Program-made: the position numbers and the translations under genes
Notes under the pieces: generated by a model
Seen by the model: only the letters and a program-made list of their open reading frames with translations
Databases searched by the model: none
Told to the model about the DNA's origin: nothing
In this document: positions 59,661 to 64,000 of the stretch, in pieces
Layout: every line of letters begins with the position of its first letter
How positions within the stretch are numbered: the stretch's first letter is position 1
Source of the DNA: Chloroflexota bacterium
GTDB taxonomy: Bacteria; Chloroflexota; Dehalococcoidia; GIF9; UBA5629
Length of the DNA stretch: 64,000 nt
Reading direction: 5' to 3'
Assembly (NCBI GenBank): GCA_016865895.1
Contig: VGNY01000001.1
Coordinates: forward strand, 1,533-65,532

Positions 59661-60773
59661 ATGCAATATAAACGTGTGGTCGCCAAGTTAGGCACTAACT
59701 TGCTTACGGGAGGCACTGGTCACCTTGATTTTAGTATTATGTCAAGTCTGGTTGAACAGGTGGCTCAGCTTCACCAGCAGGGATATGAGATAATCATCGT
59801 GTCTTCTGGGGCAATTGCTGCCGGCAGACAGAAATTGGGCATAACCAAGGAACAAAAAGGCATCCCATTCAAACAGGTCCTTGCCTCAGTCGGCCAAAGC
59901 CAGCTTATGAATGCTTATGAGCAGCTTTTCAGCCAACATAATTTGATTATAGCTCAGGCACTGCTGACCAGGTCTGACCTGGTTGACCGCGCCGGCTATT
60001 TGAACGCTCGCAACACCCTACTGGCTCTAATTGAACTAGGTGTTATTTGCATCGTGAACGAGAATGACGTAGTTGCCACCGACGAACTCGGTGAGTTTAT
60101 TTTCGGAGATAATGACAATCTTTCTGCTATGGTGGCAAATCTGGTCGATGCCGACCTTCTGACACTGCTTACCGATATAGACGGCCTGTACACTGCAGAC
60201 CCACAGCGTGACCCCAAAGCCAAGCTCATACCCAGGGTTGAAAGGATAGATGCCGAGGTCGAGCGCTTGGCTGGCGATACTGCCAGCGCTTATGGCGTCG
60301 GTGGCATGATAACCAAGCTGGAGGCTGCTAACCTAGCAACGGCTTCCGGCGTAACCGTGGTCATCGCCAACGGACGCAAACCCGATATCCTGACACAAAT
60401 TGCCTATGGAAAAAGCATCGGCACCATATTCCCGCCACGGACCAGCAAACTGGAAAGCAAGAAGCGATGGATGCTCAGCGGGCTTGCCTCCAAGGGCAAA
60501 TTGACAATCGATGACGGGGCTGTCTTGGCCCTAAAAAAACAGAACCGAAGTTTGCTTCCCGCCGGCGTTGTAGACGTGGATGGTGAATTTCAGCGCGGCG
60601 ATGTGGTAGATATTTTCGATTCGAAAGGCAACCACATCGGCTGCGGTATACCCAACTACAGCTCGCAGGATATCGCTAAAATCAAAGGTGCCCACTCCGA
60701 TGAAATCTCAAGCCTACTCGGCTACGAATACGGCACTGAGGTAATCCATCGGAATAATATGGTTCTATTGTAG
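59661..60773 (+). CDS. proB: glutamate 5-kinase (with PUA domain)
   Basis: Motifs [21 protein letters not shown] and NENDVVAT. C-terminal PUA-like [18 protein letters not shown]. Confidence 0.9.
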
Positions 60774-60784
60774 GGCATGAAGCA

Positions 60785-61537
60785 ATGCTAGTGTTTGTTG
60801 ATGAATCTGAATGGCCAAAACCATCTGCCTCTGGTGGTTACACAGTCTGGGCAGCAGCCGCTCTACACCCAGAGTTAAGCAAAACCTTTTCTAGGGAAGT
60901 TTTTAATTTAGAAAGAAAGTTTTGGCGAATCAGCGAACCTCATGAATTTGAAATTAAAGGCAGGATGCTCCTGAATAAACGAGCACTTACCAGCCCTAAG
61001 AAACTGGAATTTGTAGACGAAATTTTAAGTCTTTGCAAGCGCTATCAATTATCTGCCTTCGCAATAGGTATGCGACAGTTTGAGGAACAGATGCTGGAGG
61101 GTTTTAGCAGAGAGGAGTCTAGAATATTTAGAGTGTACCACTACCTCTTAGAAAGAGTCGAGGCTATGATGCAAGAAAGCTATCCTGACGATATGGCCAT
61201 CGTCCTTCTTGATTCCAGTGACAAGGAAACTAATAAACGCCGTGCGCTAGCCTTCGGCAACTTTCTTTATGGGCATGAAGTAGGCAAAAGCGTCCAAAAG
61301 ATTGTCGAAACGCCTTTCTTTGTTAGCTCCTCGCTTACACCTGGAATTCAAATAGCAGACCTCTTCGCTTATGCGTTGGCACAACAGAACCTAGAACGCA
61401 AAGAGCCAAAGCTGAAGAAAATTTGTGACAGAATACGAGAGCTAGAATGGCGAAGCAACCGGCTTGATGCTGAGCATCCTCTGAGAGGATTCAGATTTGT
61501 TGACGTACCAGACAAACCAGCCAGAGAAACAAAATAA
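60785..61537 (+). CDS. DUF3800-family protein
   Basis: N-terminal VFVDESE and C-terminal TPGIQIADLFAYAL match the two hallmark DUF3800 motifs as I recall them. Confidence 0.65.
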   Translation: MLVFVDESEWPKPSASGGYTVWAAAALHPELSKTFSREVFNLERKFWRISEPHEFEIKGRMLLNKRALTSPKKLEFVDEILSLCKRYQLSAFAIGMRQFEEQMLEGFSREESRIFRVYHYLLERVEAMMQESYPDDMAIVLLDSSDKETNKRRALAFGNFLYGHEVGKSVQKIVETPFFVSSSLTPGIQIADLFAYALAQQNLERKEPKLKKICDRIRELEWRSNRLDAEHPLRGFRFVDVPDKPARETK

Positions 61538-61659
61538 AAAAGAACTGGCAGCTTCAAAGAAGCTCGCGGCATTGCGTATTAGGCAATGCACCAATTCTTT
61601 ATGTTAATATAATAACATAATACTAGATTTTGTCAATACCCCATTTTGAGGGAAATGAT

Positions 61660-63090
61660 ATGGATAAGTTGAAAACCAATGTTCTATACTACGGCGATAA
61701 CCTGAAAATCCTGCGCGAGCACATACCTGATAACTCTATTGACCTGATATATCTCGACCCTCCGTTCAACAGCAAAAAAGACTATAACATCCTATTCAAG
61801 GAAAATGGTGGAGTTGAGTCCGAAGCCCAAATAAAAGCCTTCACCGATACCTGGCACTGGACCCAAAGTGCACAAAATACCTACCATGACATCGTTACCA
61901 CCGGCCCACTCAAAGTTGGACAATTGATTGGCGCCTTGCACGATGCCATAGGACAGAACGATGTCATGGCATACCTGGTGATGATGACCGCCAGGCTGAT
62001 AGAACTGCATCGCGTCCTCAAGCCAACAGGCTCGCTCTATCTTCATTGCGACCCAACTATGAGCCACTATATAAAGCTAATCCTTGACCAGATATTTGGC
62101 GCCAGTAATTTCCAGAACGAGATAATTTGGTTTTATAAAACTGGTGGTGCTAGTGCGAAAAGATTCGCACGGAAACACGATACAATATTCTTCTACACGA
62201 AATCAGGCCGATATAGATTCAACCCCCAAAAAGAAAAATCATATATGATGCATGAGTACGGATTTAAGAAAAGCAACTTCCAAAAAGATGAACTTGGACA
62301 ATACAGTTGGGTTTATACAAAAGATGTTTGGGAAATCCCGGCAGTCGGCTCGGCAACAAAAGAGCGCCTAGGCTATCCCACCCAGAAACCATTCGACCTA
62401 TTGGAGCGAATCACTAAAGCAAGCTCTAAAGAAGGCGATGTAGTCCTTGACCCGTTCTGTGGCTGTGGTACTACTATTGTAGCAGCTCAAAAGCTCAATC
62501 GCCGATGGATAGGCATTGACATCACACACCTGGCTATTACTCTGATGAAAAATCGTATTCAAGACAGCTTTGGCAACATTCCAATCGAAGTTATCGGCGA
62601 ACCTGAGGATTTGGCTGGGGCTCGTGCCTTAGCCCACCAGGACAGATACCAATTCCAGTACTGGGCACTGGGACTGATTAAAGCCAGACCGCTTGGAGAA
62701 AAGAAGAAGGGCGCTGATAAAGGCATTGATGGGGTTATCCAGTTCATAGATGACGCCAGTGGCAAGGCAAAACGGGCCGTGGTTCAGGTAAAAAGCGGGC
62801 ATGTCAGCGTCAACGCCGTCAGGGAGCTGAAAGCAGTCGCAGTGCATGATGCACTAGGCATTTTCATCACCCTTGAGCCACCCACACAACCGATGCTGAC
62901 TGAAGCAGTAAGCACCGGTATCTATCATTCCCCGGGGTGGGATAAAGACTACCCCAAAATACAGATATTGACTATAGAGGAACTATTACAGGGCAAAACT
63001 GTTGATATGCCCCCATTAACACAGACGGGTATTACCTTTGCCAAAGCGCCGAAAGTTTCGACTGAAGAAGGCGAACAGTTATCAATGTGA
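61660..63090 (+). CDS. beta-class N6/N4 DNA methyltransferase fused to a C-terminal Mrr-like PD-(D/E)xK nuclease-fold domain
   Basis: Motif IV DLIYLDPPFNS precedes motif I VLDPFCGCGTT. The C-terminal DKGIDGVIQF...AVVQVKSGHVSVNAVREL resembles the Mrr catalytic domain. ATG at 61660. Confidence 0.75.
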   Translation: MDKLKTNVLYYGDNLKILREHIPDNSIDLIYLDPPFNSKKDYNILFKENGGVESEAQIKAFTDTWHWTQSAQNTYHDIVTTGPLKVGQLIGALHDAIGQNDVMAYLVMMTARLIELHRVLKPTGSLYLHCDPTMSHYIKLILDQIFGASNFQNEIIWFYKTGGASAKRFARKHDTIFFYTKSGRYRFNPQKEKSYMMHEYGFKKSNFQKDELGQYSWVYTKDVWEIPAVGSATKERLGYPTQKPFDLLERITKASSKEGDVVLDPFCGCGTTIVAAQKLNRRWIGIDITHLAITLMKNRIQDSFGNIPIEVIGEPEDLAGARALAHQDRYQFQYWALGLIKARPLGEKKKGADKGIDGVIQFIDDASGKAKRAVVQVKSGHVSVNAVRELKAVAVHDALGIFITLEPPTQPMLTEAVSTGIYHSPGWDKDYPKIQILTIEELLQGKTVDMPPLTQTGITFAKAPKVSTEEGEQLSM

Positions 63091-63126
63091 AGCACCTGAA
63101 ATCAGCTTGTGCATTGAGGAGTAAAC

Positions 63127-64000
63127 ATGAAATCTGCAGTTACCGAGCTTGAAGAAAAAGGGGTAACAGCCAAGGCGGCTTCAAGGAAGCTTGCCTTTCT
63201 GCCTACTGAGGTCAAAAATGAAGCTTTGCTTGCTATCGCCGATGCCCTCATAGCCAGGCAAGACGCAATCCTGGCAGCCAATAAGCTCGACTATAAGGAG
63301 TCCGAAGCTTCAGGTATGAGCACAGCTATGCTCGATAGGCTTATGTTGTCATCAGGTCGTCTTGAAGCTATAGCCCAGGATGTAAGAACTGTAGCCGCGC
63401 TTCCCGACCCTGTAGGTGAAGTGATTGAAGAGCGCACGCTGCCCAACGGCCTGCATCTGAGCAAAAAACGGGTACCGCTTGGCGTTATCGGTGCCATCTA
63501 CGAGAGCCGCCCCAATGTCACCGTGGACATTTCTGTCCTATGCCTCAAATCAGGCAATGCCGTGATTCTTCGCGGTGGCAAAGAGGCACTCCGTTCCAAC
63601 CTGGCTCTAGCCAAGGTTGTTCAAGAAGCTGCTTACAAAGTTGGCGTGCCCCAGGGAGCTGTACAGATAATAGAGTCCACAGATAGGACGCTGGTTGACC
63701 GGATGCTCAAGATGAAAGACACTATAGACCTCATAATCCCTCGCGGTGGTGCCGGCTTGATAAAGTCGGTTGCCGAAAATGCCGCCATGCCCGTGCTTAC
63801 CGGCGGTATTGGCATCTGTCATACCTATGTGGACAAAAGCGCTAACCTAGAAAAAGCAGTGGCCATTGCCTATAACGCCAAGGTTCAGCGGCCGACTGTC
63901 TGTAACGCTCTGGATACGCTTCTGGTTCACGTTAAAATCGCCCCACAATATCTACCTTTAATTGCCCAGGAATGGGCAAAGGCAGGGGTGGAAATGCACT
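63127..64000 (+). CDS. proA: gamma-glutamyl phosphate reductase (5' part; runs off the window)
   Basis: ATG at 63127 follows GAGGAG. VPLGVIGAIYESRPNVTVDISVLCLKSGNAVILRGGKEA is canonical ProA. The frame is open to the window end. Confidence 0.9.
   Translation, partial: MKSAVTELEEKGVTAKAASRKLAFLPTEVKNEALLAIADALIARQDAILAANKLDYKESEASGMSTAMLDRLMLSSGRLEAIAQDVRTVAALPDPVGEVIEERTLPNGLHLSKKRVPLGVIGAIYESRPNVTVDISVLCLKSGNAVILRGGKEALRSNLALAKVVQEAAYKVGVPQGAVQIIESTDRTLVDRMLKMKDTIDLIIPRGGAGLIKSVAENAAMPVLTGGIGICHTYVDKSANLEKAVAIAYNAKVQRPTVCNALDTLLVHVKIAPQYLPLIAQEWAKAGVEMH

Follow-up and report, generated by a model that had tools for sequence, protein, structure and literature searches.

We analysed a 64,000-nucleotide (nt) stretch of contig VGNY01000001.1 from the Chloroflexota bacterium assembly GCA_016865895.1 (the window), in which a segment of 2.35 kb at positions 60774-63126 separates proB from proA. 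The upstream flank is formed by proB (glutamate 5-kinase, 59661-60773; TIGR01027, 1.6e-138), which contained AA_kinase and PUA domains, and the downstream flank by proA (glutamate-5-semialdehyde dehydrogenase, 63127-64000; PRK00197, 7e-116), which was preceded by a GAGGAG Shine-Dalgarno sequence and runs off the end of the window. Both were equivalog-level matches in NCBIfam. Between them lie a gene of the DUF3800 family (60785-61537, 250 amino acids (aa)) and a gene encoding a fusion of a DNA methyltransferase with an Mrr-type C-terminal domain (61660-63090, 476 aa), and all four genes are on the plus strand. The gene order, the common orientation and the gaps of 11 nt (60774-60784, proB to DUF3800) and 36 nt (63091-63126, methyltransferase to proA) given in a preliminary description of the locus were reproduced exactly in the map of open reading frames (ORFs). 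The 122-nt spacer between the DUF3800 and methyltransferase genes (61538-61659) contains a gene for a conserved structured RNA, encoded on the opposite strand. This gene consists of a small RNA of about 70 nt folded as a three-way junction (61528-61603, minus strand, convergent to DUF3800) and its sigma-70-type promoter (61609-61636, minus strand). Contigs nearly identical to the window were found in Lake Tanganyika and other metagenomes. We favour the reading, with a probability of about 55%, that the segment is a horizontally acquired islet with two separable units, DUF3800 with its RNA and the methyltransferase-Mrr fusion. Of most interest are a specificity block that behaves like a cassette, in a widespread, uncharacterised fusion, and the new small RNA tied to DUF3800, the activities of both being predicted.

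Insertion into the proBA operon was evident from the spacing of the two genes in relatives. A metagenome scan with ProB gave 80 related loci, about 62 of which contained complete sequence from proB to proA. The spacer was 12 nt or shorter, a bare Shine-Dalgarno sequence, in 24 of these loci, and in the closest relatives the distance from proB to proA was 8-12 nt. Spacers of 42-104 nt were found in 17 loci, spacers of about 176 nt in five loci, all from one distant high-GC lineage, and spacers of 233-600 nt, occupied by hairpin-rich repeats or a 23S_rRNA_IVP gene, in 14 loci, while a few loci had cargo of 1.3-3.5 kb in the slot. The claim of the preliminary description that foreign-type genes were inserted into proBA was thus borne out, with empty slots in relatives rather than the same two genes in all of them.

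In a neighbour-joining tree of ProB and ProA, the window and its conspecific locus L004 (homologous loci are numbered with the prefix L) fell inside a large clade whose slots are empty. L104, sister to the two, had a slot insert of 253 nt that was unrelated to the cassette, and the remaining loci with related cargo (L099, L101, L016, L184, and L014) formed a separate basal group. At four-fold degenerate sites, the identity to these loci was 0.48-0.58 for DUF3800 and 0.33-0.41 for proB and proA. Because the window lineage was nested among empty sites and the synonymous-site identity of DUF3800 was above that of the flanks, the cassette is regarded as horizontally acquired by this lineage.

Several negative results weigh against this conclusion. 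No target-site duplication and no terminal (inverted) repeats were found around the cassette, no donor-like recombinant tracts were found at the 3' end of proB or the 5' end of proA, and no mobility gene was present in the cassette, whose contents are two ORFs and the RNA (no screen for integrases was made in the remainder of the window). These absences, together with the near-native composition of the cassette and the presence of related cargo at exactly the same site in several deep lineages, would be expected if the cassette had long resided in proBA, inherited vertically and repeatedly lost, and had never been acquired horizontally. Since a large clade of empty slots with bare 8-12 nt Shine-Dalgarno spacers surrounds the window, however, vertical descent would require many precise deletions, and it would leave the excess of DUF3800 synonymous-site identity over the flanking genes unaccounted for; we consider vertical residence improbable. 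Insertion at a recurrent hotspot between proB and proA in this Dehalococcoidia-like lineage of Chloroflexota is, by comparison, highly probable.

Base composition carried no part of this argument. The G+C content (GC) of the window was 47.6%, and the ORF mean was 0.475 +/- 0.028 (53 ORFs). The values were 0.437 for DUF3800 (z = -1.4, with 7 of the 53 ORFs lower), 0.461 for the methyltransferase (z = -0.5), and 0.504 for proB. GC and GC at third codon positions (GC3) were thus rejected as signs of horizontal transfer, both cassette genes lying within the normal range of the window and being outliers in neither measure. The preliminary description had contrasted roughly 43% at the start of DUF3800 with roughly 58% in proB, from single lines of 60 nt, as consistent with acquisition, a contrast that did not survive measurement of whole genes. 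The only clearly AT-rich parts were the target-recognition block of the methyltransferase (0.385) and the intergenic region (0.352).

Other inserts were observed in the same slot. A gene for a four-helix-bundle protein of 120 aa (23S_rRNA_IVP, Pfam 6.3e-13) replaced the cassette in several close relatives (L113:1888-2250, L116:2632-2994, L138:2972-3340, and L153:8160-8522). In other relatives, the slot contained ORF-less inserts of 240-430 nt with nested perfect hairpins, resembling miniature inverted-repeat transposable elements or repetitive extragenic palindromes (L107:2298-2598, L108, L120, and L122; L131 and L133; L155; L104:8114-8366); they belonged to at least five unrelated sequence families, none of which resembled the cassette of the window. 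The 233-nt insert at L162:967-1199 contained GTTTTGTCAATATC, a sequence similar to the conserved -35 region in the promoter of the small RNA, and the covariance model of the RNA described below gave no match in it; this insert may be the relic of a lost cassette. Downstream of the slot methyltransferase in L014, a membrane protein of 159 aa (L014:9708-10187) was weakly similar to PycTM effectors (PADLOC 8e-4) and looks like further defence-flavoured cargo of the hotspot.

The first gene of the cassette was assigned to DUF3800 by a Pfam match to PF12686 (50 bits against a cutoff of 21, 6.8e-13), and the motifs DESE (aa 6-9) and GIQIADL (aa 187-193), on which the preliminary description had based the same assignment, were located in the protein. 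Residues D6, E7, E56, D143, Q189, and D192 were at least 96% conserved among 106 full-length homologues, and all of them were intact in the window protein. They include the DE...QxxD signature of DUF3800, for which an RNase-H-like fold has been predicted (PMC7736814, PMC10910872). The protein had no match in PADLOC-DB 2.0.

The small RNA on the minus strand consists of three stems, P1 (61600-61590 with 61549-61539, 11 bp), P2 (61589-61583 with 61575-61569, 7 bp), and P3 (61564-61559 with 61555-61550, 6 bp), followed by a U-rich tail (61538-61528) that overlaps the stop codon of DUF3800. Its minimum free energy was -25.9 kcal/mol (z = -4.4). In an alignment of seven sequences, 97% of the cells were paired and four pairs had compensatory changes. 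All wobbles were G.U pairs when read on the minus strand; read on the plus strand, they would be A.C mismatches. The promoter, TTGACA and TG-n-TATTAT separated by a 16-nt spacer, matched the consensus at 11 of 12 positions and had an extended -10 box, and the -35 sequence TTGACA was kept in all six homologous loci whose aligned stretch covers it. Since a scan of the stretch for promoters and terminators gave overall counts no better than those of shuffled sequence, weight was given to this minus-strand promoter alone because of its conservation in homologues. The element downstream of the DUF3800 stop was retained whether the next gene was the methyltransferase, proA, or a gene for a bPH-domain protein.

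The association with DUF3800 extended beyond the proBA slot. With a covariance model built from the slot sequences, two matches were obtained in loci that had not been included in the model, each on the opposite strand and abutting the stop of a DUF3800 gene. In L102 (35.7 bits), the DUF3800 protein was 60% identical and encoded at an unrelated locus, and TTGACG-17-TACATT promoter boxes at the same relative position as well as a terminator hairpin were present. In L190-197 (40.6 bits, E = 3.7e-9), the DUF3800 protein was 55% identical and its gene was located between a thiolase gene and rplU; every pair of the RNA was kept via several compensatory changes, P3 was lengthened, and L190 had a -10-like TATAAT at the same relative position. 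DUF3800 and the RNA were therefore found together in three unrelated genomic contexts, namely the proB-proA slot, L102, and L190-197. In about 160 loci without DUF3800, the model detected nothing apart from a degenerate relic that precedes the methyltransferase in L016. In public data, neither an RNA-seq run that contains the stretch nor a methylome turned up. The alignment, limited to 7-9 distinct sequences, counsels some caution, and with this in mind we judge it very likely, from conservation at the sequence level, that the RNA is real and tied to DUF3800.

A structured element that always abuts the 3' end of a gene could instead function at the level of DNA or of the messenger, as an attC-like recombination site or as the terminator of DUF3800. 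Both cassette recombination sites and terminators occupy this position, the occurrence of DUF3800 and the element in three contexts resembles a mobile cassette, and folded single-stranded DNA would tolerate G.T wobbles as well. Against this reading, the minus strand has conserved and well-spaced -35 and -10 boxes immediately before the element and, after it, a U-tract or a terminator hairpin of its own, and no T-run is present on the plus strand. The fold is a three-way junction with a P3 of variable length instead of a simple hairpin, and the cassette itself carries no integrase. A DNA-level or cis-acting role thus seems improbable beside that of a separately transcribed RNA.

No family in Rfam 15 matched the RNA, and no DUF3800-associated family appeared even at E <= 10; searches of six loci at the gathering threshold also gave no DUF3800-associated match. 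Rfam 15 includes DUF3800-I and DUF3800-IX (PMC11701678). Two kinds of weak Rfam match were set aside as chance, one to the hairpin ribozyme across the DUF3800 stop (61506-61550, plus strand; 21.4 bits, gathering score 65) and the others to miRNA families, far under their gathering scores. DUF3800 genes are associated with diverse structured RNAs (PMC5737381). In the motifs named DUF3800-I to -XI, drum, and skipping-rope (Weinberg et al. 2017, PMC5737381), as in the present case, the gene adjoins a structured RNA whose 3' end resembles a terminator. The known DUF3800 RNAs are described in either orientation. The RNA found here was always convergent, formed a compact three-way junction, and overlapped the stop codon. 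It looks like a previously undescribed RNA and a further motif of the DUF3800-associated kind.

DUF3800 and the RNA may act as a protein-RNA pair, in which the protein would be an RNA-bound or RNA-controlled nuclease. The protein shares the DE...QxxD signature with other DUF3800 proteins, including those linked to type VII retrons and to Cas12a2, but unlike in those systems no reverse transcriptase or Cas gene was present nearby. Alternatively, the RNA could be an antisense regulator of a toxic nuclease. Convergent antisense RNAs overlapping at the 3' end are found in type I toxin-antitoxin loci such as txpA/ratA and bsrG/SR4. The arrangement here is similar in that the 3' end of a convergent small RNA overlaps that of a gene whose product may be toxic, but the overlap is only about 10 nt and the protein is a predicted nuclease-like protein of 250 aa rather than a small membrane peptide.

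The second unit is the methyltransferase-Mrr fusion. The methyltransferase was identified by Pfam (N6_N4_Mtase, 174.2 bits against a cutoff of 26.7, 5e-51), and its motif order, with DPPF at aa 33-36, a variable block at aa ~140-254, and FCGCG at aa 266-270, is that of the beta class, in agreement with the preliminary description. Translation probably begins at the ATG at 61660, because a GAGGG Shine-Dalgarno sequence precedes it and the predicted N-terminus agrees with those of homologues; an alternative TTG at 61630 would give 486 aa. A model computed with AlphaFold2 from an alignment of 140 sequences of two subfamilies had a mean predicted local distance difference test (pLDDT) of 84.9 and a predicted template-modelling score (pTM) of 0.85. 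The top Foldseek matches of the whole model, in which the methyltransferase domain dominates, were M.RsrI, CcrM, M.BceJIV, MboIIA, and EcoP15I Mod (E = 1e-15 to M.RsrI, CcrM, and M.BceJIV). Given the DPPF motif and the adenine-specific best matches, the methyltransferase is probably N6-adenine specific. In PADLOC-DB 2.0, only generic models of Type II and Type III methyltransferases were matched.

The variable block of the methyltransferase (target-recognition block, TRD; 62079-62420, plus strand, aa ~140-254) behaved as an exchangeable cassette. In two alignments, residues 1-157 and 235-476 were almost invariant and the block between them was hypervariable with large indels. The window and L004 were 99-100% identical over 4.3 kb in proB, DUF3800, proA, and the rest of the methyltransferase, but at 62079-62420 the identity was 40-60% with indels, which is a clean replacement of the TRD within one species. 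Tandem methyltransferase-Mrr paralogues were present in several genomes; two paralogues, or a paralogue and a fragment, lay in tandem or close together in L039, L060, L061, L097, and L098, and they presumably differ in the recognition block. The pattern resembles that of mod and hsdS alleles under diversifying selection and is unlike that of a conserved regulatory methyltransferase. Conserved orphan regulators of the Dam or CcrM type are set apart from this gene by two observations, the swap of the TRD between strains and the absence of the gene from the nearest relatives.

The swapped block was bracketed almost exactly by a 23-nt imperfect direct repeat (62078-62100 and 62441-62463, 78% identity), which encodes the similar peptides LDQIFG and LDPFCG. 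This repeat may be a handle for recombination or a coincidence.

The fusion was widespread. The best 120 of at least 8000 scored candidates in a protein search, which included generic methyltransferases, were all full-length and nearly all annotated with an Mrr-type C-terminus, with an identity of 62-87% where the best local alignment covered the whole query. A genome scan yielded at least 584 relatives in many phyla, with hosts including Chloroflexota, Acidobacteriota, Nitrospirota, Planctomycetota, Sphingomonas isolates, Saccharibacteria, and a Thermoplasmatales archaeon, and the full architecture was present in well over a hundred protein clusters at 90% identity. No conserved partner was found among the three neighbours on each side of the gene in about 80 loci, where the largest cluster had five members. 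Of 75 loci, 30 had a convergent downstream gene and only 22 a tightly coupled one, and these 22 tight neighbours were a functional miscellany of housekeeping and assorted genes, e.g. those of TypA, RecX, PIN, and FRG proteins. The methyltransferase-Mrr fusion is thus an autonomous unit.

Some individual neighbours of the methyltransferase were of interest in their own right. In L101, the methyltransferase was cut to 114 aa (L101:2758-3132, 89% identical to the window protein) and followed by a 338-aa ORF without family match (L101:3152-4168) that contains a PD...EVK-like motif (DAPDLAL...YAEVKHF); the ORF may be a nuclease gene that replaced most of the methyltransferase. ORFs of 249 or 277 aa followed the methyltransferase in L184 (4601-5350) and L189 (2792-3625), either overlapping it by 4 nt or separated from it by 9 nt. 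They were unrelated to each other and had no significant family match, a profile that would be expected of separate, fast-evolving restriction endonucleases. The neighbour at L029:7618-8622 was weakly similar to Cfr10I/Bse634I (E = 1.6e-4, below cutoff).

Similarity of the C-terminus to the Mrr-type PD-(D/E)xK nucleases, which the preliminary description had pointed out, was upheld by Pfam and by conservation. The domain (62611-62994, plus strand, aa ~318-445, with D353, D357, Q376, and K378) matched Mrr_cat above cutoff over aa ~329-444 (1.1e-6, 29.1 bits against 21), with the catalytic signature intact. A profile of 80 diverse C-termini aligned with residues 198-263 of E. coli Mrr, in which D203 of Mrr fell on D357 and the QAK of Mrr on Q376-V-K378. 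D203 is a catalytic residue of E. coli Mrr (PMC5435990). D353, D357, and K378 were invariant across phyla (80/80 and 140/140 homologues), and the order of secondary structures in the AlphaFold2 model was compatible with an Mrr_cat PD-(D/E)xK domain (Foldseek was run on the whole model only). PD-QxK is the active configuration in enzymes of the MspJI family (PMC12707154). The Mrr/MspJI-type (Type IV) enzymes thus have in common with the fusion the Mrr_cat catalytic module, with its GxDxGIDG and QxK signature in register with D203 of Mrr, but in those enzymes modified DNA is recognised by a winged-helix or SRA domain at the N-terminus. No such modification-reading domain was present here, and its position is occupied by the methyltransferase, the sole other domain. 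Because of this replacement nothing points to methyl-dependence, and the earlier term methyl-dependent-type nuclease was a misnomer, Mrr_cat being the catalytic module only.

In the reading we prefer, the fusion is a putative one-chain restriction-modification enzyme that would cleave DNA. A single polypeptide would methylate its own site in the host DNA and cut DNA without the mark, the central recognition block, exchanged like a cassette, would carry the specificity, and the C-terminal Mrr-type PD-QxK domain would be the nuclease. This architecture is comparable to that of the Type IIG/IIC enzymes (MmeI, BpuSI, Eco57I, and the Thermus TspGWI family), which also combine a methyltransferase, a recognition region, and a PD-(D/E)xK nuclease in one chain, are encoded by a solitary gene, and diversify their specificity via the recognition region. 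In the known enzymes, however, the nuclease is N-terminal, the methyltransferase is gamma-like (class A), and the TRD is C-terminal, whereas the present protein of only 476 aa has a beta-class methyltransferase, an internal TRD, and a C-terminal Mrr PD-QxK domain whose cleavage is predicted; it shares with Type IIG the single polypeptide and the solitary gene and not the class A methyltransferase with an N-terminal nuclease. In fold and motif order it agrees with Type III Mod and the Type II beta-class enzymes (M.RsrI, M.BceJIV, MboIIA, EcoP15I Mod, and CcrM), and like the mod alleles it has conserved N- and C-terminal parts and a variable, exchangeable central TRD. It differs from them in having no Res partner, no conserved neighbour, and an Mrr-type domain at the C-terminus.

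A number of observations count against cleavage. The same residues, aa ~329-444, scored nearly equally with NA-iREase1, a family named as an inactive restriction endonuclease (1.3e-6, 28.8 bits against 27), and the set of metal-binding residues is non-canonical, since among 80 sequences position 376 was Q in 50 but S in the other 30, and position 333, in the first helix, was Q in 52 and E in 28. Sequence and profile searches of the isolated C-terminal domain against the PDB gave nothing meaningful. We know of no characterised one-chain restriction-modification enzyme of the beta class. The Type IIG enzymes annotated in REBASE are all of class A (gamma-like) (10.1101/2023.12.13.571470), so the fusion, if it acts as a one-chain enzyme, would add a new variant of architecture through its beta-class scaffold.

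The NA-iREase1 score, the variable positions and the lack of a characterised beta-class precedent would also be expected if the protein were a solitary methyltransferase in which the Mrr-like domain serves as a non-cleaving module for DNA binding or dimerisation. Precedents exist in CcrM, a beta-class enzyme that needs a C-terminal non-specific DNA-binding domain (PMC6787082), and in the richness of class B in orphan methyltransferases (10.1101/2023.12.13.571470). In CcrM, however, the C-terminal domain is SAND-like and not PD-(D/E)xK (PMC6787082), and a non-cleaving role sits poorly with the invariance of D353, D357, and K378 and their alignment with D203 and QxK of Mrr. The swap of the TRD between conspecific strains, the tandem paralogues, and the absence of the gene from the nearest relatives likewise fit a defence specificity under diversification better than a solitary methyltransferase. 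We therefore rate the solitary methyltransferase as the main competitor and as rather doubtful, and the one-chain enzyme that cleaves as a tentative assignment with slightly less than even odds.

Whether the two units are coupled was judged from their occurrence in other loci. DUF3800 and the RNA were found without the methyltransferase in L099 and L188 in the same slot and in L102 and L190-197 in other contexts, and the methyltransferase was found without DUF3800 in the slot variants L014 and L022. No adjacent DUF3800 was detected in 74 of 75 other methyltransferase-Mrr loci with enough flanking sequence, a count in which the full check covered neighbours within 60 nt and all ORFs were covered only by a subfamily hidden Markov model that misses distant DUF3800 proteins. 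Since each was found without the other, they are taken as two independent units. This independence is weakened by the recurrence of the pair in the slot and once in Saccharibacteria. The order DUF3800, RNA, methyltransferase recurs in L184-187, L189, and, with the 114-aa remnant, L101. In L088, from a Saccharibacteria metagenome-assembled genome (MAG), a methyltransferase-Mrr homologue (L088:115-1620) is followed by a divergent DUF3800 gene (1610-2368, Pfam 1.5e-9) with an overlap of about 11 nt (1610-1620); this adjacency is independent and opposite in gene order to that in the window, and it is the exception among the 75 loci.

The preliminary description had proposed one integrated module of DUF3800 and the methyltransferase-Mrr fusion, to which the RNA would now belong. 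In such a module, for example, the methyltransferase would mark self DNA and DUF3800 with the RNA would be the effector nuclease, or the reverse. The recurrent order in diverged slot lineages, the relic of the RNA beside the methyltransferase in L016, and the DUF3800 gene overlapping the 3' end of the fusion in L088 are in keeping with this proposal. Against it stand the loci listed above in which either unit occurs without the other, including the fusion loci across phyla without a DUF3800 neighbour. Within the slot, moreover, the co-occurrence is explained by shared descent of the cassettes, as the homology of the intergenic region indicates, followed by differential loss. An integrated module is consequently rather unlikely, and independence of the two units is reasonably probable. 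Of the paired two-gene module proposed earlier, the obligate pairing was thus not sustained, while a pair that recurs in several slot lineages and once in Saccharibacteria was confirmed, so that a looser functional link may exist. Similarly, the compact defence module is better described as a small islet of putative defence type that consists of two independent units rather than one module.

If both units are taken at their most specific, the fusion would belong to an uncharacterised, widespread, and compact (~480-550 aa) class of one-chain restriction-modification enzymes, and DUF3800 with the RNA would be a mobile ribonucleoprotein nuclease in which the RNA guides, activates, or restrains an RNase-H-like DUF3800 enzyme. 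That both should hold jointly seems unlikely at present. If true, it would provide a functional handle on the long-unexplained association of DUF3800 with RNA. The RNA described here offers a compact, testable case for the puzzle posed in 2017 of why DUF3800 genes accompany many unrelated structured RNAs, with a small, mobile pair of protein and RNA whose promoter and terminator can be recognised in the sequence. If the fusion cleaves DNA, a gap in the classification of restriction-modification systems would be filled by a short enzyme of a single chain with a beta-class scaffold, and the location of its specificity in a naturally swapped block of ~340 nt makes it attractive for reading the rules of specificity and for enzyme engineering. 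The junction between proB and proA is an example of a hotspot for defence and mobile elements within a housekeeping operon, which is relevant to the annotation of MAGs and to the spread of islets that have no mobility genes of their own.

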